Positions 2,106 through 23,777 of a stretch of DNA of 32,000 nucleotides are shown here, one piece after another. This DNA comes from Pirellula staleyi DSM 6068 (GTDB taxonomy: Bacteria; Planctomycetota; Planctomycetia; Pirellulales; Pirellulaceae): positions 2,400,001 to 2,432,000 of the forward strand of contig CP001848.1 of NCBI GenBank assembly GCA_000025185.1. Reading direction: 5' to 3'. The notes under the pieces were generated by a model. The model ran no database searches and was not told where the DNA came from. It worked only from the letters and a program-made list of their open reading frames with translations. Numbering within the stretch: the first letter of the stretch is position 1; the number at the start of each line of letters is the position of its first letter. The translations under genes and the position numbers were made by a program.

Positions 2106-3259
2106 AGCTGGGCGAAGTCGACGAAATCACAGGCCCGCGTGTGGCTCCTTATGCGGTGCACGACCTGTCGCAAATTCCCTCTCCCGCGCTGCTGCTGTTT
2201 CGCGAACTGATCGAGGCGAATATCGATGAAATGATTCGCGTCGCAGGTTCCGCCGCGCGACTGCGCCCCCACTGTAAAACACACAAGCTCGGGCCGATCA
2301 TCGCGCTGGAACTAGTGCGCGGCATCACAAAACACAAATGCGCCACCATTGCCGAGGCCGAGATGCTCGCCCTGGCGGGAGTGCGCGACATTCTGCTGGC
2401 CTACAACATCGTCGGCCCGAACATCGCGCGCGTGATTCAGCTCGTCGAGCAGTTTCCAGGACTCGAGCTGATCGTCACCGCCGATCATCCCCAGCCCGTC
2501 GCCGAACTGTCGCGCGCGATCAGCAGCCGCACGAGCGCAGTCAAGATCGGAGTGCTACTCGACCTCGATAGTGGCATGCAGCGTACCGGGCTGCCGCCTG
2601 GAGAAGCAGCGATTGCCCTCTACACGCAAATCAGCCAAGCGCCAGGGCTCCGCGCTGCCGGGATTCATCTTTACGACGGACAAAATCACCAGCGCGAAAT
2701 CGGCGAGCGAATCTCGGCTGTCACGCACTGCTGGAACCTCGCCAAGCAGTTTGCTGCGGAGCTCGAAAGTCGTGGGCTCGCGGTCCCAGCGATTGTCGCC
2801 GGAGGGACTGGTTCGTTTCCGGTGTATGCCGCAATTCAAGATGCACGGCTCGAGCTGAGCCCCGGCACCGTGGTGCTGCACGATCAGGGTTATAGCGAAA
2901 CGTATGCCGACCTGAAGTTCACTCCCGCAGCAGCGCTGCTGACGCGGGTGATCAGCCGACCGACCGAGCGCCGCGTCACATTCGACTTGGGCTATAAGGC
3001 AGTGGCTTCCGATCCTCCGATGGCCTCGCGGCTGATACTCCCCGCCCTTCCCGATGCCAAAATTGTGCTCCATAACGAGGAGCATTTGGTGCTCGAAACG
3101 CCGGGGATTTGCGACCTTCAGCCGGGGGATGCTTGCCTCGCGATTCCACGGCACATCTGTCCCACCACCGCGCTGCACGAAGTGGTGTACGTCATTAGCC
3201 AAGGGCGACTCGAGACCACCTGGCAAGTCGCAGCTCGTCGGCGAACGCTCTCGATTTAG
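2102..3259 (+). CDS. D-TA/DSD1-family PLP enzyme (D-threonine aldolase / D-serine dehydratase-like; alanine-racemase-N fold)
   Basis: The PLP-lysine motif RPHCKTHK is present. The C-terminal D-serine-dehydratase-like segment reads NEEHLVLE..LQPGDACLAIPRHICPTTALH. I place the start at ATG 2102 (MKLGEVDE), which overlaps the thiolase stop as ATGA. The longer ORF from 2054 lies inside the thiolase gene. Confidence 0.8.
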   Translation: MKLGEVDEITGPRVAPYAVHDLSQIPSPALLLFRELIEANIDEMIRVAGSAARLRPHCKTHKLGPIIALELVRGITKHKCATIAEAEMLALAGVRDILLAYNIVGPNIARVIQLVEQFPGLELIVTADHPQPVAELSRAISSRTSAVKIGVLLDLDSGMQRTGLPPGEAAIALYTQISQAPGLRAAGIHLYDGQNHQREIGERISAVTHCWNLAKQFAAELESRGLAVPAIVAGGTGSFPVYAAIQDARLELSPGTVVLHDQGYSETYADLKFTPAAALLTRVISRPTERRVTFDLGYKAVASDPPMASRLILPALPDAKIVLHNEEHLVLETPGICDLQPGDACLAIPRHICPTTALHEVVYVISQGRLETTWQVAARRRTLSI

Positions 3260-3399: not shown

Positions 3400-6300
3400 C
3401 TACTCCATGGCTCGCATCGGAATGCGGACCGCTTCGAGCTTTTTGATTTCAGCGTCGAGCGTTTGACGTTCTTCGACCGAGAGTTCAATCGCGCGAAGCG
3501 TCTTGATCGCTGCTGCGGCCTGCTGCTGCTGGCCAAGCTCGATCAATTGCCGCGCGGCCTCGAGTAGTTGCTCGCGACTCTTGGGAGCCAGCTCCACGGC
3601 CCGCTCGAAACAGTGCACCGCTTCGGCGCTACGCTTTTGAGCTCGCAAAGCGCGACCGATCGCGAGGTACGAATCGGCTTCTCCCGCTGCGGTGTCGGCG
3701 ATCGAGTGTCGCGCGCGATCGGCAGACTGGGGGTCTTGCGACTGCTGATACAGCTCCGCAAGTTCGTCCCACCACAGCGTTTTACGAGGATGAATTTCCA
3801 GCGAACTATAGAGCTGCTCGCGAAGCTGCTCGCTCTCTCCAGCCGAGCGGAGCGCGTCGATCAGCTGCTGAGCGAGCGCTTCATCCTCGGGCGTAAACTC
3901 GATCGCGATACGCAGCTGGGCGATCGCTCCTTGCACTTCGCCACGCCGCTCGAGCTCCGTGGCAATTGCCTGCCGCAAGATCGGTCGATCCTGCGCACTT
4001 GCGGCGGTTTGCTTGTCGAGCCACGCGATATATGCGGGCAGATCCTGGCACTTTTCTAAAACCGTGGCGAGGGTTTTGCGAGTCACCTCTTGCTGCGCGG
4101 GATCACGCGCGGCGACCACCATGGCGCTTGCTGCTGCCTCAACAGCCTCTTGCGTTTGGCCGAGCTCGGCCAGCGCTTGGGCGTCCAGCTGGTACCACTC
4201 CGCCAGCAGCGCGTCTTCCCGCCCACCGGTGAGGGTCAATCGCTGCGCCACCAGTGGAGCGACTAGTTCGTGCGCTTCACGGCTCCAGCCGAACTCAACC
4301 GCCAGCCGCACGAGCTGATGTTGGTGATGTTGCGAGCGGTTTTTCTCTGCTGCCACTTGCTTGCGGAGCAGCGCGAAACGTTCTTTCGCACCGGCCACAT
4401 CCCCGGTGAGCGCGGTTGCGCGAATCCAGAGCCATTGGGGCTCGAACCACGTCGGCTTGTTTTCGATAATCGGACCGAGGATCGCCACAGCTTCGGCATA
4501 GCGACGATCTTCGACGAGCCAATCGGCCAATGTGTAGCTGCCGGAGTCGCTCAGCAACTTTCGCTCCCGAGCATTCACAAGCAAACTCACCGCTTCCGCG
4601 GGTAGATGAAGCACATCGCGAACATACGAGCCGCAGCGCAGGATGATCGCTTCGTCGCGACTTTGCCCCGCCAGCTCCTGCGCCACTTTCAGGAACTCGG
4701 CCTGCTTGGTAGCCCAGTAGTATCGGCCATCGCGATCGAAAAATTCGTGCGCTTCACCTGGCTCACGCCGCAAATAACGCATGAGTCGCGGCAGCACGGT
4801 CGCGAGCAATTTTTTCTCGAGATCAGCGCGAAGTTTCGTGCCTGGCTTGTTCTCGCCACTCTCTGCCGCAGCGATCGAGTCCTCCAGAGCGCTCCCCATC
4901 GTCCCCGCGATTTCGTCCCAGATCGAAGTCCCTTGCCACTGGCGAAACTGCGGTTCCTTTTCGAGGAGCAAGAGCCCCAACTCGATCGCCGGATTCACCA
5001 GGTGATGATCGGCAAAAATCGATAAGGCGCGCTCGGCCGGCTGATCCTGGTTGCTATGGACCCGCTCGACTACCCACGGAGCTACTTCGCGTAGTGTCGC
5101 CAAAGCAGTTGCTTCAGCGCCGGGCAAATTCAAATCGAGACCAGCCTCGAGCAGGCTTGTCAGTGCGGCGTACCATTCGAGTCGCTCTTGCTGACGGATC
5201 GCTTGGCGGAGCTCGGTGGTTTGATACACGAGGGCACTTTGGAACTGGGCACCGTCGCGACCGAGTGAAGTTTCACCGGCATCAGCTACAGCGCGGCCAT
5301 AAATCTGCGCGAGGAGCAGCTTCAGCCGATCTTGCAATTGGCTCGGCGATGTTTCCTTCAGGAGCTTGATAGCGCGCGTTTCGCTCGAGCGGAAATTGCC
5401 GACGTTCATCTCCTGTTCCGTCAGATTCTCGATCGCCGTGAGCATGAACTTCGCAGGCTTTCCGGCATTCTTAGCGAGTGCTGCATCAAGTTCAGCGGCG
5501 AGTAGCAGAGCTCCCTTTTCTTCACGATCTTGACGCGACAGAAAATCGGCCACATCGACTGCCAGCGATAAACGCTCGCGCGTACCCAGCTTTTCGGTCG
5601 CCAGGCAACGCTCTGCCGTGGCGATCCAGGCATCGACCAATGGCGCGTGGCTCGCAGCTGTTTGCACACCCAGGAGACGAATCACTTTTTCGGGATGTTC
5701 GATCGGCTGATCGGTCGGGAAAGCGCGCGTCCAGTGTTCCATCGCTTGAGTTGCATGCCGCGCGGCAGCTCCTTCAACCATCGCAGCTCGTGCTTCGGCG
5801 AGCATCATCCAAAGCTCGAGCGACCGCTGATCGTGCGGCGCTGGATGCTTGGTTTGCAGCTCGCGTGCGTAACGGACCATCTCGTCGGTCGATGCTTCTT
5901 CGTAGACATCTTCGAGGACCGATTGAAACGCGATCAACTGATCGATGGCGTCGGACTGATCGCGCCCGATGAGCGACTCGGCAAGGACCGACAACAGCCG
6001 GAAATCGCGCGATTGGCGATACGAGCGGCGAATTTCGTCCCCGATATTCCGGAGTGAGTTGGGCTGCTCGAGCACCACCCGCATCTTGTCAAGCGTTCGC
6101 TCGTCGGCCGTTTCTCCGGCGGGGAGGTTGCGAAGTTCGCTCTTCACCTGCTCGCTTAAATCGTACGAACTGGTGCGACGGTACTTGGCCAGCAGCGTTT
6201 GCTGAGAGGCGACTTGCTCGCCGAGCGCCAGACGCCAGCGGGCGACTTGATCGAGCTGAGATTCGTCGAGACTCTGCGCCGCTTCGAGCGGCTGAAGTGT

Positions 6301-9300
6301 AGCAATCGCCTCGCTCAGTTCCCCCACTTCAGCTTGCAACTGAGCGAGTTCCCAGCGCACGCGCGGGCTGGTCGGATCATCGGCCAGCAGTGCGCGAAGC
6401 ATCTGCTGTACCTCGCGCGAGCGATCAGCCGCCAGGAGTGTGAGGTACTCCAGATCGCGTCGCGTCGCGGCGTCGATCTCACCGGGCTGAGGCTTTTCAC
6501 GCAGCTCGGCGAGAAGCTGATCGACCGCAGCAGCGGGCTGTTTGTCGGCGGTCACCAGTTGTGCGGTGAACTGCAACGCCACTTGGTGCAGCGTCGCGCT
6601 CACCAGGAGCAGCGCTTCACGCTCGTCGTCTGCGAGCTGTTTATCGGCCGCGATCGAGGCCGCAATTTCCCGCGCTTCTCCGATCAACTTCCAGCCGTTT
6701 TTCACCAGCGCTGCCGACTCGCTACCGAACTGCTTCTCGAGCGCTGCCATCTTGAGCTGCAGCTGCAAATTCCAGAGCGGACGCTTGTCGGCCAGCTTTT
6801 CGAGTTCGCTGCGCAGTTTTTTACGCGCTGCGATCTTCGCGTCTTGTAGCTGCTGCGAGCGCTGGGTGCGCGTGAGCTTGGGATCACGCACAATGCGCTG
6901 TTGATCATTGGTATCGGCCTGTTTTTCGATTCTCTCAACGACTAGATCCAGCTCCTGCAGTTGATCGACCAGTTGCTGCGTGCCTGTCTTGGCTCGCGAC
7001 AGATTTTTGAGCTCGGGAAGGATCGCGTAGATCTTTTCAAGCTCGCTCGAGCCGCGCTGCTGCTCGATCCATTGCCGATGGAATTCGTCGCGCACTGGGC
7101 CCGTTGTCTTGGCAATGAGCAACTGCAAAATCGGCTTCCCTTGCAGGTCGGAGAGGCCCAGGGAAAGGATCGCTTCGCCGAGCGCCAGCTTCGCGCGGTC
7201 GCTCTGATCGGCCACAAGTCGCTCGAGCAATCGCTCGGCAATCGGCTCCGTCACTTTCTGCTCATCTTCGATCGCTGCAGGAAAGTTCTCGAGGAATTCG
7301 GCAAGCGTTTGGATCTCGAAAATCGGCAGCGTTTCGCAGCGGGCGAGTAGGTTGCGAAGAATCGTCTGCCGAATATGGCTCTGCACGGGCTCGCGAATTT
7401 GGTTGGAAACTGTCAGGTCATACAGTGCCATCCGCGGGCTTTCGCTGGCCGCTTGGGTGATTAGCGCTCGCGCCACTTGGTCTTCAAAACGATATTTTCC
7501 ATCGTTATCGGGCGTGTTAAACGACTGGAATCCACCGACGTTGTTGGCAATCACGCTCGAGGCTTGCGTGAGCTCGATTTCTTCAGCCCGCGTGAGCTGA
7601 CGATGATCGGCAGCAGCTGCGAGCGCCGCGCGAAGCCGCGCATCGAGCGCTTCCTTTTGCCCCATGCTGAGGAGGACGTAATACTCGATCCGTACGCGGC
7701 TATAGCTCGGCTCGGGAACCGCTTTCTTCCATTTTTCCAAGAGCTCGGCAGATTCGGCAATCGCACCATCGTCGACGAAAATCTGCCACGACTTGGCGAA
7801 CAGATGATCGAGGTTGCTGGTGCGCTTCAGTTGCTGCATGCGCTCGATGGCGCTGGTGATGATCTCATGCGCTGCGAGCGATTCTCCCTCGCGATGGAGA
7901 CGATCGGCGGCCACGAGCACTGCCTCGGTCGATTCGGGAAATTGCTTCACATTGTCGAGGTAAAGCTGAATTCCTCGGGCGTTATCGAGCTCGTACTCAA
8001 GTGCCGCTGCAGTCTCATGCCACTGATAACGATGGTACGACGTAGCGGGAGATCGCAGCACAATGGGGCGGGCCAATTCGTGCAGCTGTTGCTGCTGTGG
8101 GGTCGTGAGGATGTCTCGCGCGTATTGCTGCAGTTCTCCCATCAGCCGCAGTTCACCGGCGTGCGGCTGGGTGGCGAGTTGCTTCAGCATCGCTTCGAGC
8201 AGCGCCAGTGTGGGGCGATGGTCGCGATTGTGGCTTGCAAGCTGCAGCATCAGTAGCTGCCAGATCCAGTCGGCATGCGGCTCGTTCTTGAGCAGCTGCA
8301 CTTGGTCGGTCGTATCGCTGTAACGCTGATGTTCGATGAGTGTGCCGATCCAAGCGAGTCGATCGCTCGGAGTGAGTTTTCCCATCGGGGGAGCATTCAC
8401 GCGCAGCTCGCGGAGTGGAAGCTCGATGGCAAGCAGCCCTTCGCGAAGTTTCATCGAGGCTGCGAAATCGGCATCGAATTGCTCGGCCGTGCGGAGCTCG
8501 ATTGTTCGTTCTCGGCGCACTACCTCGCGACCTTCGTCATCGAGCGTCACTTCCACCGTCGCGAGCCACTGCTGACCCACCTGGATGAACTTTTCGAAGC
8601 GTGATGCCAGACGATAGGTGCCGTTGAACTTGGTCCAGAGCTCGACGATCGTGAGCCGCTTGGTATGCACCAGCAGCTTAACGCTGTGGCGTTCATCTCC
8701 CAGCGGATCGCGCAGTTCGAGCCAAACATGGTCGGGCTTGTCTGCCGGAACAAGCGCCGCGCGAAACTCCCGGTGGTGGTAAAGCAAATGCGCCTGCAGT
8801 TCGCTCGTCAGAATGACCGGCGGCTGTTCCAGATCACTTGCCGCAGCAGCGCGTGAAAGATGCAGTTGATACATCGGCCAGAGATAGCCTCGCGTGTCGC
8901 GCGTGCAGTAGTTCGTCTCGGGATTGCTCCCCTCCTGACGTACCAGCCAGGCCTTGGGCGAGAGCAGAATCCGCTGTTCGCTACTCAAGGTGAACCCAGG
9001 CTGCGACAGATCGCGGCGCGACTCCGTTTGACGAATCGCCACGCTTTCGGTCAGACTTTGTGGTTGCGCTGAACGCAACAACTGCTGCGCGAGCTGAAAC
9101 GCCTCCTGCGACCAAGTGGCAGGCTGCTTGTTGATCGAATGGAGCTTGCGCGGGCTCGCGGGAATCGCTCCTGCGATCATTCCGATCGGGTCGTGAATCG
9201 CATCCACATAGGGACGAGACCTAGTCTCCGCCAGCATTCCTCGCTCTTGGCCTTTTCGATCGGATAAGCGGCGGCCGGTGATCGCGAACGCTTGTCCTCT

Positions 9301-12300
9301 TCCCGTAATACCGCTCCCCGGAAAATTGCCAACACTAAGCATGAAATCATGCTCCGGCAGAGACTGTTCACCAAAATCGGTGAGGTCGACCGAGAGGGCA
9401 GAGCCGTCGACATCGGTTCCGAGCGACAGGGTATCGCCGAGGGCAAAATAGTTTTCGGTTTCTTTGAGTGCATTCAGGCTGAGGAGGGAATCGGTCACAT
9501 AGCGACGATTGTCGTCGATTTCCCCTCCAAACGGATCGCTCCCAAAGCCCCCGCCTATCCCGCCGCCCCCCAGTCCACCTCCACCCATGCTCATGCCACC
9601 ATAACGGCCAAGCATCTGTCCTGTGATGAAGTCAAAGGTGGTCAAATGGTCTTTATAGCCATCGCTAAAACCCCAACTCGAGCCCCCCGCCCACAGGCTA
9701 GGGATCATGGCAGCGCCGGTGGAACGGTAGATTTGATCGAGGTTCTCGCGCAAGTCTGCAAGCGTGGGTGGAGTGGCAAGCTGCGTGCGGGCCTGCGCCA
9801 TCAGCTGCGCGCGGAAGGCACGCGCGGCAATCATTTGCTGATAGCGGAGTGCTTCGCGCACCTTGGTTTGAGCATCGGCAAAGAATCGCTCTCCATCCTT
9901 CATCTGCATCGTCCGTTTGACTTTGAAGCGTGCCCGATCTTCTTCGGTCTCGAGCACGAGCAGCGATGTGTACGGAGTGATCAGGTGATACTCGGCCGAG
10001 AGGGCGATGATTTCGCTGACAATCTCGGCTGAATTTCCTTCGAGCAGCAGCTGATCGATATGCTGTTTGGCCCACAGCCGCGGCAGGAACGAGGCCTCGT
10101 CGGAGCTGGCGTCGCTTGCAGGAGCAGCCACCTCCACCGACTGGCGAAACTCGACAGGTTTGCCCGCTGAAGTGCCACGCACGATGATTTCGCCAGCGAG
10201 TTTTTCCCCTTCCGGCAAATAGCGGCCGACCACGATTTGCTGTGCTCCGGCGGGCAAATTGGGGAGCTGCCGAGGATAGACACGTGCCGTCCGAATGCCG
10301 CTGATTTCGAGCGTCAGATTCTGTAGCGCAGGACGTGTGATTTCTGTCAGCAGTTCAGCAGCCACTTGTGCTGGAGTTGCTTCCCCAGTTACCTCGCGAC
10401 GGCTTCCGCCACTACCGCGCGTGATCGCTTCGAGTAGCGTTGCATCGAGCAGGCTCGACGTGCTGATCGCATGCAGCACCACTTGCTTGCTCGCAGCCTG
10501 TTTCTGAACCTTGGCCGCGAGAGCACCGGTATCGACATGCGGCGCACTAGTGCGGAGTCCATCTCCCAGGTAGATCAAGTGCGAACTAGCGGCGGATCGT
10601 TCGATGGCGGTGGCGAGTCCTTGATCGAGATTCGTCCAGCCGAGCGCCGAGCGCGAGCTGATGAATCGCAGCAGCTTCTCGATCTCGGCTTCACTGGCGA
10701 CCACCGGTTCGTCGGATGCCCAGCAAGCGGAGGAGTCGATCGCTCCCAGCAGCACGCGATCGTCGGGGCCTAGCGAGCGGAGCAGGGCGGTGACCGTTTG
10801 CAGTTGCAAGCGACGTGCTTCGCCGCGCATCGAGGCGCTTGTATCAACCAGCAGCGTGAGCTGCAGTGGCGCGCTACTGGCCACTTCAGTGCGCCGCCAA
10901 GCAGCATCGCCACCTGGCGGATTGAGCAGCAAAAGAAAGTAGCCATCGTCGCCGCGTCGATGCGGAATGAGTGTCAGCGGAGATTGCTGCGGCGCTGTTT
11001 CGATCGTGAGTTCAAAATCACGTGTTGGTCGATAATTGGCCGCCGAGAATTCGGCCCGCGCGGTGAGGGGCGACTGCGAAACGCGGAGCGGATGCGTCGT
11101 GCTTGCGACCTTCGTCAGCGGCAGATGCGAAACGATGTTCGCCGTGATCTGCAAATCGGCAAGCGGGTTCTGCTGCAGCAGTTCACTCGCCAGGTTATAG
11201 CGGTAGCGAATCTGCTGGCCATGCTTGGGGAGGACCTGGGTATAGACGATCTTGATCCGCTTTTCCCCCTTCGCTGGAATCGGATAAACGCGGGCCTGGA
11301 ACTGATTTCCCGCTGTCCATTCGAGCAGCCCCGGGTCGCGTTTTTCGCGCAGGATCGTTTCGTAAATCTCGCGGGCTCGCTGCCGCTCGACAACATCGGC
11401 CTCGACCAGTTCGTCACCAATCCACATGCCGAATCCGGAGATCGAAGCATCCGCTGGGAGGGGAAAGTGGAACGTCCCTTCGAGTACCGCATCAGTTCGG
11501 TTGATGAACGACTCGACGATCGTGGTCCGCGCGATTTGATCGCGGATATCAATCGTCACGTGATGTGTTCCGACATCGAGCGAAATGCTTCGGCCATCGA
11601 CGTTGGCGATCAGCGAGCCGAGTAGTTGGTCGCTTCGTTTTCCCAAATAGGCGCTCAGCCAGAGGGGCGTTTTATCGAGTGCTTCTAGCGATTTTCCCGA
11701 TGCTCGCAGCAACTCGGTCCCGCTCAGTTTCGTCACCTTCTGGTCGGGGCCTGTGAGGGTAAGTTCGCGTTTGCCAGAAGCGGTTCGGATTTCTCCCGCT
11801 GTCAGCGTGATTGCCGTCGGACTCGTCAGGACAAGCTGCGCTCCTGGGCCAGCGATGAGCGACGAGTTGCCCGCGAGCGCGATCGCAACGGCGCTCCGGC
11901 TTTGGTCGTCGACCCGCAGCATATCGCCCGGGAAAAGCAACGTCAGATTGGTCAGCGGAGTCCAGCGCGTCGCCTCAGCCGACTTGATCCAGGCCACTCC
12001 AATCACATCAGTCACGTCCCCCACACGGCCGTCGGCTGTCAGCGTGTCGGAGACTCGCAGCAGCTGCGGATCGACTTTTCCTTGCAGCAGTTCGACGGTG
12101 AAGCTGCGGGGAATTTCGCCTGCATGACGTGGGACGATTTGAAACGTTTTGGGTACGACAGAGTCTCCCTCGAAACTGATTTGAAACGAAGCGAGCGACT
12201 GATCGGCGAGCGTGCGAGCGGTGCCGGACAGGATGCGCGGCTGTTGCTCGCGAGGAGCGCGCGGCTGATCGAGGGTGATCGTCGCGGGATCGAGTCCCAG

Positions 12301-12870
12301 CAGCGCGAGCGGATGCATGCCGGTGCTGGCGGAGGTTCCGAGCGTGACCTCGGTGGTTCGCGCGGCGCTTGTGGGAATTTCGATCTGCGACGAATCGAGA
12401 TGACGCGCCACGTTCTGCTGCTCATCGACTTGCCACAGATTGAGATCGTCTTTCACAAAGTACCGCTCGGGAGAAATGCTCAGCCGCAGATCGCTCGGGC
12501 CTTGCCCCACTACTTCCAGAATTTGGTCTCCCAGCTGAAGCTGACCACGATAGCTCGGCGCGTCGTGAATTTTGGCGATCGCTTGCTCGAGCGCGGTCGC
12601 GCTTTCGCCGGGACTACCGAGGTAGATACCGGCGGCGAGAATCAGCGACGCAGCCAGGGTGACGAGGAGGCGAATGGCAGCCATGGAAGTTCTTTCGCGA
12701 AGGTTGGGAGAGGAGTTCGCGCGGAGGTTGAATTGAGCAAGGGACTCGGATCGTAAACGGGCCAAGAGCGCACGATCGATCGGCGCAGCATCGCGGGCCA
12801 AGAGGCCGACGAGGTCGCGCAGGAGTTTGTCGGAGTCGTCAGGTGGAACTGGATGTGGTGAGCCGGTCAT
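3400..12870 (-). CDS. giant (3,156 aa) single-pass membrane protein: short cytoplasmic N-terminus, TM anchor, FecR-like, VIT and VWA domains, Gly-run, about 2,000 aa of helical/TPR-like repeats; candidate anti-sigma factor/sensor of the upstream ECF sigma
   Basis: A single uninterrupted 9.47-kb ORF. Its ATG overlaps the sigma-factor stop (ATGA at 12867-12870). Motifs are listed in the sub-features below. The post-VWA tail HLITPYTSLLVLETEED is typical of bacterial VIT-VWA proteins. The C-terminal about 350 aa have TPR-like A/L/Y/E periodicity (SYLAIGRALRAQKRSAEAVHCFERAVELAP). Confidence 0.85.
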   Translation of the reverse strand: MTGSPHPVPPDDSDKLLRDLVGLLARDAAPIDRALLARLRSESLAQFNLRANSSPNLRERTSMAAIRLLVTLAASLILAAGIYLGSPGESATALEQAIAKIHDAPSYRGQLQLGDQILEVVGQGPSDLRLSISPERYFVKDDLNLWQVDEQQNVARHLDSSQIEIPTSAARTTEVTLGTSASTGMHPLALLGLDPATITLDQPRAPREQQPRILSGTARTLADQSLASFQISFEGDSVVPKTFQIVPRHAGEIPRSFTVELLQGKVDPQLLRVSDTLTADGRVGDVTDVIGVAWIKSAEATRWTPLTNLTLLFPGDMLRVDDQSRSAVAIALAGNSSLIAGPGAQLVLTSPTAITLTAGEIRTASGKRELTLTGPDQKVTKLSGTELLRASGKSLEALDKTPLWLSAYLGKRSDQLLGSLIANVDGRSISLDVGTHHVTIDIRDQIARTTIVESFINRTDAVLEGTFHFPLPADASISGFGMWIGDELVEADVVERQRAREIYETILREKRDPGLLEWTAGNQFQARVYPIPAKGEKRIKIVYTQVLPKHGQQIRYRYNLASELLQQNPLADLQITANIVSHLPLTKVASTTHPLRVSQSPLTARAEFSAANYRPTRDFELTIETAPQQSPLTLIPHRRGDDGYFLLLLNPPGGDAAWRRTEVASSAPLQLTLLVDTSASMRGEARRLQLQTVTALLRSLGPDDRVLLGAIDSSACWASDEPVVASEAEIEKLLRFISSRSALGWTNLDQGLATAIERSAASSHLIYLGDGLRTSAPHVDTGALAAKVQKQAASKQVVLHAISTSSLLDATLLEAITRGSGGSRREVTGEATPAQVAAELLTEITRPALQNLTLEISGIRTARVYPRQLPNLPAGAQQIVVGRYLPEGEKLAGEIIVRGTSAGKPVEFRQSVEVAAPASDASSDEASFLPRLWAKQHIDQLLLEGNSAEIVSEIIALSAEYHLITPYTSLLVLETEEDRARFKVKRTMQMKDGERFFADAQTKVREALRYQQMIAARAFRAQLMAQARTQLATPPTLADLRENLDQIYRSTGAAMIPSLWAGGSSWGFSDGYKDHLTTFDFITGQMLGRYGGMSMGGGGLGGGGIGGGFGSDPFGGEIDDNRRYVTDSLLSLNALKETENYFALGDTLSLGTDVDGSALSVDLTDFGEQSLPEHDFMLSVGNFPGSGITGRGQAFAITGRRLSDRKGQERGMLAETRSRPYVDAIHDPIGMIAGAIPASPRKLHSINKQPATWSQEAFQLAQQLLRSAQPQSLTESVAIRQTESRRDLSQPGFTLSSEQRILLSPKAWLVRQEGSNPETNYCTRDTRGYLWPMYQLHLSRAAAASDLEQPPVILTSELQAHLLYHHREFRAALVPADKPDHVWLELRDPLGDERHSVKLLVHTKRLTIVELWTKFNGTYRLASRFEKFIQVGQQWLATVEVTLDDEGREVVRRERTIELRTAEQFDADFAASMKLREGLLAIELPLRELRVNAPPMGKLTPSDRLAWIGTLIEHQRYSDTTDQVQLLKNEPHADWIWQLLMLQLASHNRDHRPTLALLEAMLKQLATQPHAGELRLMGELQQYARDILTTPQQQQLHELARPIVLRSPATSYHRYQWHETAAALEYELDNARGIQLYLDNVKQFPESTEAVLVAADRLHREGESLAAHEIITSAIERMQQLKRTSNLDHLFAKSWQIFVDDGAIAESAELLEKWKKAVPEPSYSRVRIEYYVLLSMGQKEALDARLRAALAAAADHRQLTRAEEIELTQASSVIANNVGGFQSFNTPDNDGKYRFEDQVARALITQAASESPRMALYDLTVSNQIREPVQSHIRQTILRNLLARCETLPIFEIQTLAEFLENFPAAIEDEQKVTEPIAERLLERLVADQSDRAKLALGEAILSLGLSDLQGKPILQLLIAKTTGPVRDEFHRQWIEQQRGSSELEKIYAILPELKNLSRAKTGTQQLVDQLQELDLVVERIEKQADTNDQQRIVRDPKLTRTQRSQQLQDAKIAARKKLRSELEKLADKRPLWNLQLQLKMAALEKQFGSESAALVKNGWKLIGEAREIAASIAADKQLADDEREALLLVSATLHQVALQFTAQLVTADKQPAAAVDQLLAELREKPQPGEIDAATRRDLEYLTLLAADRSREVQQMLRALLADDPTSPRVRWELAQLQAEVGELSEAIATLQPLEAAQSLDESQLDQVARWRLALGEQVASQQTLLAKYRRTSSYDLSEQVKSELRNLPAGETADERTLDKMRVVLEQPNSLRNIGDEIRRSYRQSRDFRLLSVLAESLIGRDQSDAIDQLIAFQSVLEDVYEEASTDEMVRYARELQTKHPAPHDQRSLELWMMLAEARAAMVEGAAARHATQAMEHWTRAFPTDQPIEHPEKVIRLLGVQTAASHAPLVDAWIATAERCLATEKLGTRERLSLAVDVADFLSRQDREEKGALLLAAELDAALAKNAGKPAKFMLTAIENLTEQEMNVGNFRSSETRAIKLLKETSPSQLQDRLKLLLAQIYGRAVADAGETSLGRDGAQFQSALVYQTTELRQAIRQQERLEWYAALTSLLEAGLDLNLPGAEATALATLREVAPWVVERVHSNQDQPAERALSIFADHHLVNPAIELGLLLLEKEPQFRQWQGTSIWDEIAGTMGSALEDSIAAAESGENKPGTKLRADLEKKLLATVLPRLMRYLRREPGEAHEFFDRDGRYYWATKQAEFLKVAQELAGQSRDEAIILRCGSYVRDVLHLPAEAVSLLVNARERKLLSDSGSYTLADWLVEDRRYAEAVAILGPIIENKPTWFEPQWLWIRATALTGDVAGAKERFALLRKQVAAEKNRSQHHQHQLVRLAVEFGWSREAHELVAPLVAQRLTLTGGREDALLAEWYQLDAQALAELGQTQEAVEAAASAMVVAARDPAQQEVTRKTLATVLEKCQDLPAYIAWLDKQTAASAQDRPILRQAIATELERRGEVQGAIAQLRIAIEFTPEDEALAQQLIDALRSAGESEQLREQLYSSLEIHPRKTLWWDELAELYQQSQDPQSADRARHSIADTAAGEADSYLAIGRALRAQKRSAEAVHCFERAVELAPKSREQLLEAARQLIELGQQQQAAAAIKTLRAIELSVEERQTLDAEIKKLEAVRIPMRAME
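9520..9603 (-). other. glycine-run low-complexity linker (YGGMSMGGGGLGGGGIGGGFGSDPFGGE)
   Basis: Read directly from the translation. It lies between the VIT-VWA module and the C-terminal two thirds of the protein. Confidence 0.8.
10340..10869 (-). other. von Willebrand factor A domain with MIDAS-type DxSxS (approx. aa 668-843)
   Basis: LQLTLLVDTSASMRG carries D-T-S-A-S. It is followed by GPDDRVLLGAIDSS, WTNLDQGL and HLIYLGDG, which are typical VWA strand/loop motifs. Confidence 0.75.
11227..11570 (-). other. VIT (vault/inter-alpha-trypsin) domain (approx. aa 434-548)
   Basis: The sequence is VTIDIRDQIARTTIVESFINRTDAVLEGTFHFPLPADASISGFGMWIGDELVEADVVERQRAREIYE...GNQFQARVYPIPAKGEKRIKIVYTQVLP. 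This matches the characteristic VIT layout. Confidence 0.75.
11745..12036 (-). other. FecR-like beta domain (approx. aa 279-375)
   Basis: GRVGDVTDVIGVAWIKSAEATRWTPLTNLTLLFPGDMLRVDDQSRSAVAIALAGNSSLIAGPGAQLVLTSPTAITLTAGEI follows the FecR pattern: G.v..v.G.v......W.p......l..GD.l.t...s.a.l.l..gs.l.l.p.s.l.l.....l.l..G. Boundaries are estimated by eye. Confidence 0.5.
12616..12684 (-). other. transmembrane anchor of the giant protein (aa 63-85, MAAIRLLVTLAASLILAAGIYLG)
   Basis: This is the only long hydrophobic stretch in the protein. It is preceded by a 62-aa charged, helical-looking segment ending RERTS (positive-inside). Confidence 0.7.
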
Positions 12871-13451
12871 GGGAGCACCCTTTCTCCGGTGACGCGTGCC
12901 AATGCCGAGCGCAAGGCACGACGAGCGCGGGCCAGTTTGGACTGGAGTGCGGTGGTGGAGGTGGCGTCGCGGGCTGCCAGTTCGTCGAGCGATAGTTCAT
13001 CGAGATAGCGAGCCACGAGCAATTCTTCGTAGTCGAGCGGCAGCATGCTGAGCGCTTCGCGGACCGATTGAGCCGTCTCGGCGGCGCTCAGCAGATCGGC
13101 CGGAAGTGGCTCGCTCGTTTCGAGCTGCGCCGACTCGGCGTCGAACAGACTGGTTTCAAAACTGGGAGGTCGCGTTTGACGGCGTCGAAAGTAGAGTGCT
13201 GCTTGTCGCCGCGCGATTCCCGAGAGCCAGCCCCACAACGTTCCGCGCGACGGATCGAACGTACGGAGGCTTCCCGCCGCCGCCAGGAATGTTTCCTGCA
13301 CGATGTCGGCCACTTCATGCTGATGGGGTCCGACGCGCCGCGCCACCGATTGCCAAATGCGCGGCGCAAGGGTGTCGTACATCGACTCCCAGGCCGACGC
13401 TTGGCCCGCCAGAAGACCTCTGGCTATCGTGTGCTCGCTCGGCAGTTCCAC
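12867..13451 (-). CDS. ECF-type RNA polymerase sigma factor (sigma-70 family, group 4)
   Basis: 194 aa. Region 2 reads HEVADIVQETFLAAAGSLRTFDPSRGTLWGWLSGIARRQA. Region 4 reads LSMLPLDYEELLVARYLDELSLDELAARDATSTTALQSKLARARRALR. The start is GTG at 13451. The stop overlaps the downstream giant ORF start. Confidence 0.9.
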   Translation of the reverse strand: MELPSEHTIARGLLAGQASAWESMYDTLAPRIWQSVARRVGPHQHEVADIVQETFLAAAGSLRTFDPSRGTLWGWLSGIARRQAALYFRRRQTRPPSFETSLFDAESAQLETSEPLPADLLSAAETAQSVREALSMLPLDYEELLVARYLDELSLDELAARDATSTTALQSKLARARRALRSALARVTGERVLP

Positions 13452-13665
13452 GCTGATGGTCCGGGGCGGTGGTTGAAGTGCAGGGGGATCTCACCTAACT
13501 CTTTGCGCCCGAGGGTCGGCTGCTGTCGCCAATTCTCGAAAAAATTCGAGCTGTACGTCCGCTGTCGTAGAAACATCCCCCGGGGCCGACTGTGGCGATT
13601 GTGACGGAAGCCCCGCTTCGATGCGACTTGGAGAAAAGAACTGGCCATAGCAATTTGGCAATTTG

Positions 13666-13807: not shown

Positions 13808-14884
13808 ATGTCGACCCCAACCTGCTACCAGGCTCTTCAAGCTATGTGCGCAAAGTATTGCCAGGCTTTGTTTTGCGCTGCAATGGCCGCTAGCATTCTC
13901 GGCGCTGCCGCCAGCCCCGTGATGGCGCAATCGCCCGGTCCTGGACCTTCGCGACAGTTGGCTCCTGGCATTTTGACCGTCATTCCGCCGAAGCCGGAAG
14001 AAGAGGAAATGGTCAGCGGACCAACACTTCTTGCCGAAATTCCCGCCGAAATCAGCGAACTCGACTACACGCCGAACTTCACACCGAAATCGGCCACACT
14101 GCTCGAGCAGGCCAAAGCAGCCACGCTAAGGCGCACGATTTGGAACCTCGAATTCGCCTTCAAACCAATGCGGATGATCATCATCGATGTGCCGCAAACG
14201 AGCGGAAAAGCTCAAAAGAAGCTGATTTGGTACATGGTTTACCGGGTCAAGAACAACGGCGGGCACCTCTCGGCCAAAGAAGCGGTGGAAACCGTCACCG
14301 ATTCGATCGAGCACAAGCGGTTTGAAATCGAAAAGACGAACGAAGTGGAAGTGTTTGGCCGCAAGGGAACCAGCCTCCGTTTCTTCCCGCAGTTTGTGCT
14401 CGCCAGCCGCGAGTATGAAAAGTCGTATCTCGATCGGGTAATTCCGGCCGCCATGGCCCCGATTAAGGCCCGCGAATTCCCGGGTGATAAGCAGGTGGCT
14501 TTGTACGATTCGCTCGCGATCAGCGAAGTGAATATTCCTCTTTCGGACGCCATGAACGACCGAAGTGTATGGGGCGTCGTGACTTGGGAAGATGTTGACC
14601 CTCGTATCGACTACTTCTCGGTCTACGTGCAAGGGCTGACCAACGCCTATAAGTACGAAGACCCAGTGGGGGCCTTCACCAAGGGGAGTGCGCCGGGAAC
14701 CGGGCGGAAATTCACGACCAAGACGCTGCAGCTGAACTTCTGGCGCCCTGGCGACGCGGTGGCTCAGAACGAGGACGAAATTCGTTATGGGGTCCGTCTC
14801 GACTCCAACGAAGCCGAGCAGCAGCGAATTTTCGCGCTCTACGGGGTCTCAGGCCGTCTTGATCATCTCTGGCTCTACCAGTAA
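13808..14884 (+). CDS. secreted hypothetical protein (no family recognised)
   Basis: 358-aa ORF with GAGGA 6 nt upstream of ATG 13808. A signal-peptide-like segment reads AAMAASILGAAASPVMA|QSP; Met at 13844 is an alternative start. The rest has mixed composition and no motif I can name. Confidence 0.7.
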   Translation: MSTPTCYQALQAMCAKYCQALFCAAMAASILGAAASPVMAQSPGPGPSRQLAPGILTVIPPKPEEEEMVSGPTLLAEIPAEISELDYTPNFTPKSATLLEQAKAATLRRTIWNLEFAFKPMRMIIIDVPQTSGKAQKKLIWYMVYRVKNNGGHLSAKEAVETVTDSIEHKRFEIEKTNEVEVFGRKGTSLRFFPQFVLASREYEKSYLDRVIPAAMAPIKAREFPGDKQVALYDSLAISEVNIPLSDAMNDRSVWGVVTWEDVDPRIDYFSVYVQGLTNAYKYEDPVGAFTKGSAPGTGRKFTTKTLQLNFWRPGDAVAQNEDEIRYGVRLDSNEAEQQRIFALYGVSGRLDHLWLYQ

Positions 14885-19594: not shown

Positions 19595-20108
19595 TTGATA
19601 TTTCCTCAGTGCATGAAAGCGAACAAAGGGAGCGTCGGCTCGTTGGGGCAGAACTCGCAGACGCTGGCTGTGCTTGAAAACTACCTTACGAAACCTCCTG
19701 GGGCCGCTAGTGGGGGTGGCGTTCTCCTTGTCTTGCGCAAAGCCGCAAGCGGAAACCGCTCCCCGAGGGGTGCATGGGTGGGAAAATGCGGGCTATGCAT
19801 CAAATGCAAGTGATGCGTTGTGGTCTTACAACCGGCACTGTCGGCGCAGAAGTGTCAGCTTGTTTAAGCGGCCAGGGGGATTGGGGAAAATGAAAGTAAA
19901 AGTGCTGATTGGTGAAGAAGGGAAAGCTGCGGCGACGATAGCACTCTCCAGATCGGCAGCTTGAGTTGTCGGTTGGTCGCTCTGAGTTACACGCAACGGC
20001 CTATCGCATTTGCAACGCAATGCATCGCGAGGCCGGCGGTCCGGCGACTCGTTGTTTCGATGTTTCCGTTTCCGTCTCCCTCGTATTCCGGTTTTCAGGA
20101 GTTTTCCC

Positions 20109-20630
20109 ATGAAGAGTCGTGCTGTTGTTGCTGCGATCTTGGCTGCTGGTCTCGTGCTGTTCACCAGCGCCTCGGCCTCGGCTTTCGATCTCCTCGGTTG
20201 TGGTTGCGAAGCTGCCCCAGCTTGCTGTGCCCCAGCCCCCACTTGCTGCAAGCCAAGCCGCTGCTGCAAGCCAAAGTGCTGCCGCGTTCCACGTTGCTGC
20301 AAGCCAAAGTGCTGCAAGCCTGCTTGCGAGCCAACCTGTGGCGCTCCTGTGAGCTGCGCCGCTCCTGCTCCTACCTGTGCCGCTCCTGCTCCTAGCTGCG
20401 GTGCCGAACCAAGCTGCGCTGCTGCTCCTAGCTGCGGTTGCGAAGCTCCTAAGTGCTGCAAGCCAAAGTGCTGCCGTCAGCCACGCTGCTGCAAGCCAAA
20501 GTGCTGCAAGCCAGTTTGCTGCAAGCCAGCTTGCGAACCAAAGTGCTGCAAGCAACGCTGCTGCCGTCAGCCACGCTGCTGCAAGCCAGTTTGCTGCAAG
20601 CCAGCTTGCGAACCAACCTGCTGCGGTTAG
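20109..20630 (+). CDS. exported cysteine/proline-rich repeat protein (CC-K/R-x-x pentads; keratin-associated-protein-like composition)
   Basis: AGGAG at 20097-20101 sits 7 nt upstream of ATG 20109. The signal peptide is [25 protein letters not shown]|FD. The mature 148 aa contain 44 Cys and 27 Pro by hand count. A hairpin terminator lies downstream. The ORF-track start at 20010 adds an Arg-rich non-signal leader and is unlikely. Confidence 0.75.
20196..20627 (+). repeat. 15-nt-period coding tandem repeats (TGCTGCAAGCCANNN) in two duplicated blocks
   Basis: Block A (about 20196-20340) and block B (about 20440-20627) both start G/S-CGCEA and end [10 protein letters not shown]. Near-identical stretches such as CCACGCTGCTGCAAGCCA(AAG/GTT)TGCTGCAAGCCAG recur. 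Confidence 0.85.
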
Positions 20631-20815: not shown

Positions 20816-21232
20816 CTAACGACCAGGTGCCGGACTTCCAATCACCAGCGGAATCGAGCCATCGCTCGTGGGATACTGCACCACCAGTGGGGTCGCTTGC
20901 GGCGACGTATAGATCGGTGGCAAGAAGAGTGGCACACCAATCGATTCGAGCGTGAAGCGATACTCGCCCGGTTCGAGCACGAGTGGCCCTTCTGCCCCCA
21001 ACTTCACCAGCTCGAAACTTCCATCGGCCCGGGTATCCCCAAAGCCGATCTTTGTCCAGCTGCCGTTCGTATTTTGGTGCACCGAGATCTGAATCTCGCT
21101 CACCGGACTTCCTTGAATCACCAGCGAGCCGGCTGTTCCACCTTCCACCGGTTGGGGACGACACCCGCCCATCGCCGCCAGTAGGATCGCACCGCCGATC
21201 AGGCCTAGTAACTTACGCTGCGCGCTAGTCAT
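20816..21232 (-). CDS. small lipoprotein with carboxypeptidase-regulatory/transthyretin-like beta-sandwich pattern
   Basis: 138 aa. The signal has a lipobox-like LLAAMGG|C. The pattern GSLVIQGSPVSEIQISVHQ....GFGDTRADGSFEL......LEPGEYRFTL is typical of CarboxypepD_reg-like domains. The ATG overlaps the PepSY gene stop (ATGA at 21229-21232). Confidence 0.7.
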   Translation of the reverse strand: MTSAQRKLLGLIGGAILLAAMGGCRPQPVEGGTAGSLVIQGSPVSEIQISVHQNTNGSWTKIGFGDTRADGSFELVKLGAEGPLVLEPGEYRFTLESIGVPLFLPPIYTSPQATPLVVQYPTSDGSIPLVIGSPAPGR

Positions 21233-22659
21233 CGTTTTCCCTCCGTGGCGAGCACTCCTGCGGAAAGTTCTTCCGCGGTGCTAACCACCGGCACACTGCC
21301 GGGCTCGTCGAGCGACAGCCATTTGCGAGCGGCTGGGATGCGGCGAAGCACGCTCCACTCCAGCAGCAGCACGACGACGAGCGAGAGGCCAAAGAGTGGC
21401 AAGTAGATTCCGAGCGCGAGAATCACGAGCGCCAAAACGGTCGACCAGCGACTCGCGGTGAGCGCTTTCGGGGCCCCGAGCGATCCGGCTTCGCGACGTC
21501 GCCACCACATCACCACACCGCTCGCCCCCAGCAGCACTAAACCGGCCGCTGTGAGCAGTCCCAGCAGTTGATTGAGCCGTCCAAATAGGGCCCCTTCATG
21601 CAGCGCGATCCCGTAGCCCACCACCTGATCGACCCAGTGGCGATCGGAAAAATCTTCGCGGCTGACGATCGCGCCGGTCGAGCTATCGACCACGATGGTG
21701 GTTCGCAGCGGACGATTGGCGGCCATCGATTTCACCGTCCAGTTGGTTCCTCCTCGCTGCGGCGGGCTGATCAGCACCGGATGGGCCAGGTTCAAACCAC
21801 GCGCCACTTCCGCCACGCGATTCACCCCGGCAAGATCGACCGGCTTGTCTTCGCCGCGATTGCCCCGAGCACCTGTGTGCCCCTCGTGATCGCCACTGCT
21901 GCGCCGCGCTGCACGTTTTTCACTGCCGTTGCTCCAGTCTTGCTGCGTCACGGCGGTGCCGGTCAGCTGCCGCATTGTGCGGAAGTAGTCTCCCCAGAAT
22001 TTCGACCACGGAAGACCACTCACCAGCAGCAAGATGGCAAAGGCCGAGATCCACATTCCGAACACGCCATGCAGATCGCGCCAGAAAATGTTCTTCGCCC
22101 CCAGCAGTCGCGGATAGAGGACCCCGCCGAGTCCTTTTGCGTTCCGCGGCCACCATAGGAACAACCCCGAGAGAAGCATCACCAAGGTCCACGATGCCGC
22201 GAGTTCGACGAGATACGACCCGCGATCTCCGAGCATCAATTCTCCGTGAATGCGAAAGATCAATCGCATGAATCGATCTTGCTCATGCACTTGATGAATC
22301 ACCGCCAGCGACGTGGGATGCACATAGCAGCGATCGGTAACGCCGTGCTGCTTCACTAGCACGCGCGCGGCCGAGGTGATGGTGCGAGGCAATTCGTAAC
22401 TTGCAAACGTTGCCTCGGGGTTGGCTTTCAGGGCCGCTTCAATTTGCGCATCGACCTCGCGCGGCGCAGCGATATCGGTCAAATGGTTTTGTGAATACTC
22501 GATCGCATCTTCGATCTCTTGCTTGAACAGATAGATCGCTCCACTGATCGAAAGCACGATGACAAAAGGGATGCAAAACAGTCCGGCATAAAAATGCCAG
22601 CGCCACACCGCTCGGTAGTCGGGCCACGAGCGGCGTGGCGTCGGTTGTAGATTCGTCAT
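21229..22659 (-). CDS. PepSY-associated TM-helix protein (PiuB/FoxB-like putative di-heme membrane reductase)
   Basis: 476 aa. The N-terminus AVWRWHFYAGLFCIPFVIVLSISG is diagnostic of the PepSY_TM family. There are four TM-proximal His motifs: RWHFYAG, RIHGELMLG, RDLHGVFG and IALHEGALFG. Periplasmic PepSY-like segments lie between the TM pairs. Confidence 0.85.
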   Translation of the reverse strand: MTNLQPTPRRSWPDYRAVWRWHFYAGLFCIPFVIVLSISGAIYLFKQEIEDAIEYSQNHLTDIAAPREVDAQIEAALKANPEATFASYELPRTITSAARVLVKQHGVTDRCYVHPTSLAVIHQVHEQDRFMRLIFRIHGELMLGDRGSYLVELAASWTLVMLLSGLFLWWPRNAKGLGGVLYPRLLGAKNIFWRDLHGVFGMWISAFAILLLVSGLPWSKFWGDYFRTMRQLTGTAVTQQDWSNGSEKRAARRSSGDHEGHTGARGNRGEDKPVDLAGVNRVAEVARGLNLAHPVLISPPQRGGTNWTVKSMAANRPLRTTIVVDSSTGAIVSREDFSDRHWVDQVVGYGIALHEGALFGRLNQLLGLLTAAGLVLLGASGVVMWWRRREAGSLGAPKALTASRWSTVLALVILALGIYLPLFGLSLVVVLLLEWSVLRRIPAARKWLSLDEPGSVPVVSTAEELSAGVLATEGKR

Positions 22660-22682: not shown

Positions 22683-23777
22683 TTAGTTTTGCGAGACTGC
22701 TTCGCCACCATTGCCGCTGTGCATAGCGCGATGAACGAGCAGGTCGATCGAATTGGGGAGGAGTCGCACGCCACCATCGGCGGTCATGGCCATCGCCCCA
22801 CCCGGATGAAAACTGCGCGGCGCAAAGAACCCGGTGAAGTGCGTCACGACGTCGGGAATGCGGCTGTTGGGGGTGCTATAGCCGTTGGTCAGCGTGCTCA
22901 TCGCGCCGCTGTGGGCCCACGACGTGCCACGGCCGCGCAGTGCCGCGCTGGCAGCTCCGCGCCAGCTCGTTTTCTGCGGCCAAATCGTCGCCAGGTCGGG
23001 ATTCTCGATCGATCCGCTGGGGCCATTACTCCAGCCGCCACCACTTCCCGACATCCCGGGAAAGGCTTGCAGCGTTGCAGTGACTCCCGACGAGCCGTTG
23101 AGCGTTGCTTGATACGGGGCCTTCGGAAGCTGACCTGCAGGGAGCGTGAAATCGGGACCCACGCTCCGCACCGTTTCGCTCATGAACACCGTGTTCGATG
23201 TTCCATCGGTCAGATCGGCAAAGCGGGCCCCCGAGTTCTCGTACACCACACCATCGGTGCGCCAGCGGAGGTCGTAGTTCGTACCGGTGCCACTGCCGAA
23301 ACTGACCATGTAGTTGATGCCCGAATAACGCGCGCCCCCCGCCCCTTCGTTAATGACCGGAGCAGGATCGCTTGGGCACAGCGCCACGGTGATCGGCTGG
23401 GCAAACGATGCCGCAAACGCGGGATTTGGAACGAGCGCATTGAACGGACCGGTGAACGCCGGCTGAGCAAAGTCGAGCGTGTTTTGGAGGTTCAGCTGTT
23501 CGATGAACGGCAGCAGTCGCGCTTGCGGCGAAAACCCCTGCGTGTTCGGCAAATAGTTCTGGGCATTCGTCATCGGAAATGCGCCGAACGTATCGTGGTA
23601 GTTATGCGCGGCGAGTCCCCACTGCCTGAGTTGATTCGAGCACTGGGTGCGACGCGCAGCTTCGCGTGCGGCTTGCACTGCCGGAAGTAGCAGCGCCACA
23701 AGCACGCCAATAATGGCAATCACAACGAGTAGTTCCACCAAAGTGAAACCTCGTCGACGGGAATAGGTACGGGACAT
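22683..23777 (-). CDS. DUF1559 protein with prepilin-type N-terminal cleavage/methylation domain (planctomycete pseudopilin-like family)
   Basis: The N-terminus is [61 protein letters not shown]. The C-terminus is [23 protein letters not shown]. Both ends are canonical for the family. Confidence 0.92.

Follow-up and report, generated by a model that had tools for sequence, protein, structure and literature searches.

A conserved gene pair of an ECF sigma factor and a giant VIT-VWA membrane protein, a candidate sigma/anti-sigma system of planctomycetes

Can a membrane protein of more than 3,000 residues serve as the anti-sigma factor of a small sigma factor encoded directly upstream of it? This question is raised by a locus of Pirellula staleyi DSM 6068. 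It lies in a stretch of 32,000 nucleotides (nt) of contig CP001848.1 (positions 2,400,001 to 2,432,000; assembly GCA_000025185.1), which as a whole is called the window below and on which all positions are counted from the first letter. Here, a gene for an extracytoplasmic function (ECF) sigma factor (12867..13451; 194 amino acids (aa), GTG start, as given in the list of open reading frames (ORFs)) is followed by a giant gene (3400..12870; 3,156 aa, ATG start), the product of which is a candidate membrane anti-sigma factor or sensor. Both genes, the parts described for them and the motif upstream of them are on the minus strand. The giant protein is 100% identical over 3,156 residues to P. staleyi DSM 6068 ADB16569.1 (WP_012910832.1), which carries no annotation beyond 'Vault protein inter-alpha-trypsin domain protein'. 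We propose, at a probability of roughly 0.68, that the two genes encode an autoregulated ECF sigma/anti-sigma pair, in which a novel two-helix segment of the giant protein would hold the sigma factor and a giant extracytoplasmic sensor and scaffold would control its release.

Conservation of the sigma/giant gene pair

Among 5.8 billion proteins searched, more than 700 were homologues of the giant protein. The top 120 were nearly all 2,900–3,270 aa long and came from Pirellulales, Thermoguttaceae, Planctomycetaceae and Gemmataceae. Given more than 700 homologues with a length of about 3,000 aa, we conclude that this architecture is not due to chance. At least 257 genomes contained a relative in a scan with one genome per species. 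We analyzed 83 loci, i.e., 80 from this species-representative scan together with the loci of Zavarzinella formosa, Symmachiella macrocystis and Anatilimnocola floriformis. In these last three, which stand for three families, the sigma factor gene lies directly upstream of the giant gene, and the neighbors beyond the pair are unrelated. Conserved pairing in related genomes was among the tests set beforehand for the sequence-only reading of this DNA, and in 65 of the 83 loci a profile found that the gene immediately upstream, in the same orientation, encodes a close orthologue of the sigma factor. When the window sigma factor itself was the query, an upstream orthologue on the same strand was found in about 60 loci, at 100–193 bits. 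A divergent sigma factor was present in six of the 83 loci, and most of the remainder had no upstream sequence on the contig. As judged from gene order and predicted orthology, the pair is a conserved feature of Pirellulales, Planctomycetales and Gemmatales, and it therefore probably has a core function in the planctomycetal cell envelope.

The stop codon of the sigma factor gene and the start codon of the giant gene overlap as ATGA (12867..12870, in the sequence ...CTCCCATGACCGGC...), which had been pointed out before and can be read directly in the sequence. An overlap of sigma stop and giant start was present in 48 of 63 evaluable loci, with a size of 4 nt in 29 (26 ATGA, 3 GTGA) and of 8 to 17 nt in 19. 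Gene order and overlap support a conserved two-gene module with translational coupling.

The 194-aa sigma factor contains region 2 (13176..13379, aa 25–92; PF04542 Sigma70_r2, E 9.4e-14) and region 4 (12912..13070, aa 128–180; PF08281 Sigma70_r4_2, E 3.9e-8) and has no match to Sigma70_r3, as is characteristic of ECF (group 4) sigma factors. It also matches TIGR02937 (E 1e-21), and the solved structures closest to it are SigE, SigW, RpoE and CnrH. Among the 65 loci the sigma orthologues have a median identity of 44%, with region 2 as the best-conserved block of their alignment. The scores for the planctomycete-specific NCBIfam subfamilies TIGR02989 (63 versus a cutoff of 124.55) and TIGR02984 (59 versus 183.75) were below cutoff. 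A 2012 analysis of nine planctomycete genomes probably included P. staleyi; we therefore suppose that the sigma factor has probably already been placed in an ECF group, where the giant neighbor may have been noted.

Cytoplasmic segment, upstream motif and paralogous modules

The giant protein is composed, in this order, of a cytoplasmic segment, a transmembrane (TM) helix, a LolA/RseB-like domain, a beta domain, a VIT domain, a VWA domain, a Gly-rich linker and a family-specific stretch of about 1,900 residues that ends in TPRs. Its layout is that of a membrane anti-sigma factor, i.e., the gene adjoins a sigma factor gene and the product has a short cytoplasmic N terminus and a single TM helix. 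This part of the sequence-only reading is supported: the short cytoplasmic N terminus is conserved and leads through a basic cluster into the only TM helix, and most of the protein would lie outside the cytoplasm.

The TM helix (12616..12684, aa 63–85) stands out in the hydropathy profile as the single strong window (aa 64–82, Kyte-Doolittle 2.16; all other windows ≤1.3), in keeping with the one helix proposed before. It is common to 120 homologues, and AlphaFold2 (AF2) places a helix at aa 57–85. As a basic cluster precedes the helix, we judge the orientation to be N-in. Basic cluster and helix were also considered as a twin-arginine translocation (Tat) signal peptide, a candidate that we rejected as the main interpretation in view of the conserved cytoplasmic motif of about 55 residues ahead of them.

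This cytoplasmic segment (12685..12870, aa 1–62) is the candidate sigma-binding domain. Two helices are predicted in it, at aa 11–26 and 33–51, in an AF2 model of aa 1–440 with a predicted local distance difference test score (pLDDT) of 79. Its canonical consensus, LAxLLAA...DAAPPDxxFLxRLRxQSTxAF, is followed by the basic cluster and then by the TM helix, and the segment is kept among proteins sharing only about 30% overall identity. There is no Cys in aa 1–62 and hence no HxxxCxxC motif, the absence of which had been noted correctly; the segment is thus not a class I domain of the zinc-binding anti-sigma (ZAS) type. Neither zf-HC2 nor other anti-sigma models of Pfam matched the N-terminal region at E ≤ 10, and an N-terminus profile gave only chance matches against all PDB sequences.

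Met63 (codon 12682–12684) lies directly before the TM helix and is conserved in at least 90% of the homologues. Many database gene models begin at this residue and consequently are without the cytoplasmic segment. Met63 may be a conserved internal start, giving an isoform without the candidate sigma-binding part, or it may reflect a recurrent gene-calling error.

Upstream of the sigma factor gene we found a bipartite promoter-like motif, GGCGACAGCA-N-GGGCGCAAAGA (13500..13530), that the sequence-only reading had overlooked and that is a candidate autoregulated ECF promoter. The family consensus is GCGACACATTT-N12-GCGCAAA(T/G)A. Measured from the GTG start codon, the motif ends 48 nt and its CGCAA core begins 56 nt upstream. 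CGACA and CGCAA are spaced by 21 nt in 24 orthologous loci and by 20 nt in 5. With a leave-one-out position weight matrix (PWM) the window site scored 16.3 bits, compared with 10.1 bits for the next best site in the 32 kb and a maximum of 12.6 bits in 30 shuffles. In 1.32 Mb of loci, 37 sites scoring 14 bits or more fell within 400 nt upstream of a sigma factor gene and 3 fell elsewhere. Such a sigma-specific upstream motif is what would be expected of positive autoregulation. A second site, which would mark genes of a regulon, was not present in the 32-kb window, and no regulon member can therefore be named from it.

The motif was also seen in other settings. In one locus (L013:3991-4021) it occurs with 34 bits directly upstream of a giant ORF without the first helix, with no sigma factor gene in the 4 kb upstream. 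In loci of the Symmachiella type (L002:4650, L004:2650) it precedes the sigma factor gene by about 780 nt and stands before an extra 181-aa ORF (L002:4791-5336).

A paralogous module, which we call type B, is found in loci L014, L031, L039, L041 and L057, sometimes in the same metagenome-assembled genome (MAG) as a canonical module; in L041, for example, its sigma factor gene occupies 1032–1584 and its giant gene starts at about 1590. In one MAG (CAZTPX...), a canonical module occurs together with two of type B. Type B sigma factors are 27–31% identical to the window sigma factor and 57–84% identical within their group. Their giant proteins have a different cytoplasmic motif, LSGxLREAxExI...ARVLERARQ, and motif A went with the canonical sigma factor in 41 of 41 loci and motif B with the divergent sigma factor in 4 of 4. 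The upstream motif differs as well: in the same place, type B modules have GGTAAYTT-N16-CGTCTA, which is of the classic ECF type. Along 700 periplasmic residues that start with the beta domain, type B and canonical proteins share 63% identity, compared with 66% among canonical proteins. Sigma factor, cytoplasmic motif and promoter motif thus switch jointly in the paralogues. The joint switch of sigma factor and cytoplasmic motif is as predicted by a cognate sigma/anti-sigma interface and is hard to explain if the N terminus were only an anchor.

In two loci (L026 and L038; with one mismatch also in L053) the canonical motif upstream of a canonical sigma factor gene overlaps a type-B-like element, GGAACTT-N-CGTCTAA, as in GGAACTTTGCGACACATTTGGCGTCTAATGCGCAAATAG. 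These overlapping elements suggest that the sigma factor of one module may, in some genomes, also drive the other module, i.e., a cascade.

The extracytoplasmic part

Between the TM helix and the beta domain, where the AF2 model has an alpha/beta domain, AF2 and Foldseek point to a LolA/RseB-like domain (12076..12606, aa ~89–265), another feature that had been overlooked before. Its model has the open beta-barrel fold of the LolA type: Foldseek matched four LolA structures at E 1e-4 to 4e-4, among the matches 8cgm (E 1.1e-4), 9azz and 4mxt, and also RseB 2v43 (E 1.5e-3), which is the sensor of the sigmaE pathway in the periplasm. Of 16 homologous N-terminal segments, 3 had a Pfam LolA match (E 7e-5), and the window protein itself had none. 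Gemmatales members (P0025, P0028, P0041, P0063 and P0067) are without the whole domain, their N-terminal segment being 265–272 aa long versus about 435 aa, and we therefore regard it as an optional insert in the family. The domain points to an envelope sensor of the RseA/RseB type at least as much as to FecR.

The highly conserved beta domain that follows (11671..12033, aa ~280–400; AF2, pLDDT 90–96) had been called FecR-like. A separate AF2 model of aa 266–436 (pLDDT 83.7) was searched against the PDB. The top Foldseek match was 5ix9 (E 3e-3, TM-score, i.e., template modeling score, 0.77, 68 columns, 1.3 Å), which belongs to an unrelated protein, the Marinomonas ice-binding RTX adhesin, and is its outer-membrane anchoring (retention) domain. 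It ranks above the weak second match, 6ovk_R (probability 0.99, E 0.37, TM-score 0.40/0.32, 89 columns, 2.8 Å), which is the C-terminal signaling domain of PupR, an anti-sigma regulator of the FecR family. Pfam FecR (PF04773) was found neither in aa 1–435 (E ≤ 10) nor in the 16 homologous N-terminal segments (E ≤ 1), and a beta-domain profile against PDB sequences gave MtxA alone, at E 0.8, and no FecR or PupR chain. We have rejected membership in the FecR family, as Pfam FecR is silent on the window segment and the 16 homologues. What is left of the FecR-like label is the PupR fold match at E 0.37, by which the model weakly hints at a FecR-like juxtamembrane domain. It had further been proposed that the giant scaffold replaces a TonB-dependent transducer. 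No such transducer and no STN partner were encoded in the 32-kb window or in three annotated related loci, and this claim is therefore conjecture.

The VIT and VWA domains of the sequence-only reading were confirmed. The VIT domain (11242..11565, aa 436–543; PF08487, E 3e-29) scores 98.8–101.8 bits versus a cutoff of 26.5. The VWA domain (10405..10863, ~aa 670–822; VWA_3 PF13768, E 5.6e-11) scores 43.2 bits versus a cutoff of 27 when its segment is scanned alone, and it has a complete metal ion-dependent adhesion site (MIDAS). In a full-length alignment of 30 sequences, D676, S678 and S680 of the DxSxS motif and D770 are invariant and T746 is nearly so. A post-VWA region (9871..10404, aa 823–1000) contains the invariant TPYTSLLVLE (columns aa 965–974 of the same alignment). 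TIGR03788 aligns to aa 566–986 with 189.7 bits versus a cutoff of 551.65, i.e., below its equivalog score. From this alignment and the invariant TPYTSLLVLE we conclude that VIT, VWA and post-VWA region form one unit that resembles inter-alpha-trypsin inhibitor heavy chains (ITIH).

For the remainder, the sequence-only reading had described a Gly run followed by about 2,000 aa of helical repeats that end in TPR-like units. The Gly run (MSMGGGGLGGGGIGGGFG at ~aa 1093–1110) and the TPRs stand. The former is part of a poorly conserved Gly-rich linker (9166..9783, aa ~1030–1235; it includes GGGGLGGGGIGGG), over which the 30-sequence alignment has no consensus. The uniform helical repeat does not stand, since at least one conserved beta-rich stretch (~aa 1380–1470, about 8461–8733) lies inside the supposed helical region. 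Apart from a few TPRs this region has no Pfam match, and the window protein has none in its middle region (aa ~1236–2140). This middle region (6451..9165) is mixed beta at first and then helical. When aa 1230–2400 were searched with phmmer against 1.84 billion cluster representatives, 307 matches were obtained, and the best 150 of them were all collinear and in proteins of about 3,000 aa or their fragments. We therefore consider the middle region private to the family. Three homologues have a faint PF17131 LolA_like match (E 0.01–0.12) at the equivalent of ~aa 1400–1460. A duplication of the N-terminal LolA-like domain in the middle region was tried and rejected, as hhalign finds no relation (probability 0.1%). 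The C-terminal region (3403..6450, aa ~2141–3156) is helical and TPR-rich, with TPR_19 at aa 2145–2201 and TPR_1/2/8 at aa 3065–3097, and the homologues contain many TPR families. A terminator was looked for downstream of the giant gene and none was found.

Proposed mode of action and alternative readings

We propose the following course for the sigma/anti-sigma pair. Both genes would be co-transcribed from the conserved promoter upstream of the sigma factor gene, and coupled translation would produce the two proteins in step. The two-helix cytoplasmic N terminus (aa ~10–51) would bind the sigma factor and keep it at the membrane, and the approximately 3,070 extracytoplasmic residues would serve as sensor and scaffold. 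Their order would be a LolA/RseB-like cavity, a juxtamembrane beta domain of FecR-like fold, the ITIH-like VIT-VWA unit, the flexible Gly-rich linker and a surface of about 1,900 residues. The MIDAS of the VIT-VWA unit could bind ligand through a metal ion, and the 1,900 residues could form a family-specific and TPR-type protein-binding surface. A change in periplasm or envelope, e.g., binding or loss of a ligand, would free the sigma factor, most plausibly through regulated proteolysis of the anti-sigma factor of the kind seen with RseA or FecR. Once free, the sigma factor would raise expression of its own operon and turn on a regulon. We infer the binding of the sigma factor, the N-in topology, the mechanism of release and the nature of the signal.

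Several points weigh against this proposal. That the N terminus binds sigma is a step we infer entirely; it is without detectable sequence similarity to known anti-sigma domains in Pfam and PDB, its helices are modeled with moderate AF2 confidence only (pLDDT 58–78), and its structured part of about 45 residues falls short of the length of class I anti-sigma domains. The canonical upstream motif is unlike typical ECF −35/−10 elements and could be a transcription-factor site. No conserved protease, transducer or other partner gene is located nearby in the window and the three related loci. Finally, a near-constant length of about 3,100 aa and conservation along the whole protein would equally suit a mainly structural protein.

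The last point leads to an alternative in which the giant protein would chiefly be an envelope component with a structural or adhesive role. It would be a scaffold that spans the periplasm, is held by its N-terminal TM helix and is the main target of the co-transcribed sigma factor, with no sequestration. Besides the strikingly constant length of about 3,000 aa, it can draw on the VIT-VWA and TPR modules, which are typical of adhesion and scaffolding, on the lack of a detected known anti-sigma domain in the giant protein and on the fact that the only strong promoter-motif site of the window drives the sigma/giant operon itself. A mere anchor, however, needs no conserved cytoplasmic motif of about 45 residues, and this motif is exchanged exactly with the sigma factor while the periplasmic part stays; moreover, stop/start overlap in most loci suits stoichiometric partners. 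We consider a mainly structural role unlikely. The same architecture and partner-specific switching would be expected if the N terminus were a positive regulator, a 'pro-sigma' that activates or stabilizes the sigma factor after a signal in the style of FecR and FecI. An N-terminal fragment of FecR is required for FecI activity, and the beta domain resembles PupR of the FecR family at the fold level. On the other hand, Pfam FecR has no match and no TonB-dependent transducer is encoded nearby, and the sigma factor groups with ordinary ECFs (SigE, SigW, RpoE) and not specifically with FecI, which together make positive regulation improbable in our view.

Genuine FecI/FecR cell-surface signaling, with an outer-membrane transducer encoded elsewhere in the genome, appears very improbable. 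It would explain why an ECF sigma factor gene is followed by one for a single-pass protein, and the PupR signaling domain is the rank-2 Foldseek match of the beta domain. That match has an E of only 0.37, though, and Pfam FecR fails on the window protein and the 16 homologues. In PupR, the FecR domain precedes an STN-like subdomain that contacts the transducer, whereas here the VIT-VWA unit and 2,600 further residues follow, and none of the examined neighborhoods (the window and three related loci) contains a transducer. The sigma/anti-sigma pair, our preferred reading, can also be carried further in a direction that we regard as speculative and, taken as a whole, rather unlikely: the module might be a planctomycetal counterpart of the sigmaE envelope-stress system in one polypeptide. 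Its LolA/RseB-like domain or domains would sample mislocalized lipids or lipoproteins, and the VIT-VWA-TPR arm would report contact with the outer membrane or the cell wall, the loss of which would free the sigma factor. The planctomycetal periplasm is unusually wide, and the arm could be long enough to span it. The paralogous modules would be insulated or cascaded channels, and the N terminus would define a new class of anti-sigma domain.

The pair is an uncharacterized version of a known kind of system, that of sigma and anti-sigma factors. By analogy, the module appears most like RseA/RseB-sigmaE with a LolA-fold sensor fused in, and partly like FecR/PupR. RseB is a LolA-fold periplasmic module that senses lipidic envelope signals and gates anti-sigma proteolysis. 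In the E. coli system, too, an ECF sigma factor is co-transcribed with a single-pass, N-in anti-sigma factor (N-in being predicted here), and the LolA fold of RseB has its likeness in aa 89–265, which match LolA structures and RseB 2v43. Whereas RseB is a separate protein, the LolA-like domain here is a built-in part of the candidate anti-sigma factor. The cytoplasmic segment is without similarity to RseA, the extracytoplasmic part is about 30 times larger, and no rseC-, degS- or rseP-like genes are linked to the pair here.

With FecI/FecR and PupI/PupR, the module shares the order of an ECF sigma factor and a single-pass regulator that has a beta domain next to the membrane on the periplasmic side, and aa 280–400 superpose weakly on the C-terminal signaling domain of PupR, with the alignment values given above (89 columns, 2.8 Å, E 0.37). 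It differs from them in that there is no PF04773 match, STN-contacting end or TonB-dependent transducer; the cytoplasmic part comprises about 50 residues versus about 85, and more than 2,700 extra residues follow. Bacterial VIT-VWA proteins (TIGR03788, marine sortase targets) and ITIH heavy chains likewise have VIT, VWA with MIDAS and a post-VWA region. The giant protein scores far under the TIGR03788 cutoff, however, and carries no sortase or PEP-CTERM sorting signal, and here the unit is one part of a protein of about 3,100 aa, which is anchored in the membrane and coupled to a sigma factor.

Anti-sigma candidates with comparable modules have been described. According to the available text of the ECF reclassification, putative anti-sigmas of ECF289 have VWA fused to DUF3520, and ECF267 has FecR-like anti-sigmas with TPRs (PMC7826278). 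As far as that text goes, both are precedents for predicted anti-sigma factors with extracytoplasmic VWA or TPRs but differ by description, with DUF3520 or protein-kinase contexts and no mention in it of VIT or a size of about 3,000 aa (PMC7826278). Class II anti-sigma domains such as CnrY and NepR are short two-helix sigma-binding segments, with CnrY as a single-pass protein (PMC8103513). The giant N terminus, for which AF2 gives two helices in aa 11–51, is like them in size and helix count only and is without sequence similarity to them. A literature search found no paper linking a VIT/VWA giant protein to an ECF sigma factor in planctomycetes.

Among the forms of bacterial signaling, ECF sigma/anti-sigma pairs are the third major one. 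To our knowledge, almost no planctomycete ECF has a known input, and the giant protein, if it is an anti-sigma factor, would be by far the largest that we know of. There are about 40 ECFs per planctomycete genome (PMC7826278), and 102 defined ECF groups are unstudied (PMC8103513). If the 62-residue N terminus binds the sigma factor, it would be a new type of anti-sigma domain, and the pair would illustrate how transcription can receive input from LolA-like, VIT-VWA and TPR modules. With the conserved promoter motif and its PWM, the regulon can be searched for directly in any planctomycete genome.

The other genes of the window are mostly of a housekeeping kind and differ between genomes; they include 3-hydroxyacyl-CoA dehydrogenase, thiolase, a D-serine dehydratase-like protein, Obg, CoaX and PGK. 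Divergent from the sigma factor gene is a 358-aa ORF (13808–14884, plus strand), and a 211-aa ORF lies further on (19826–20461, minus strand); both are without a Pfam match. Two other neighbors encode a PepSY_TM protein (21229–22659) and a DUF1559/N-methyl protein (22683–23777).

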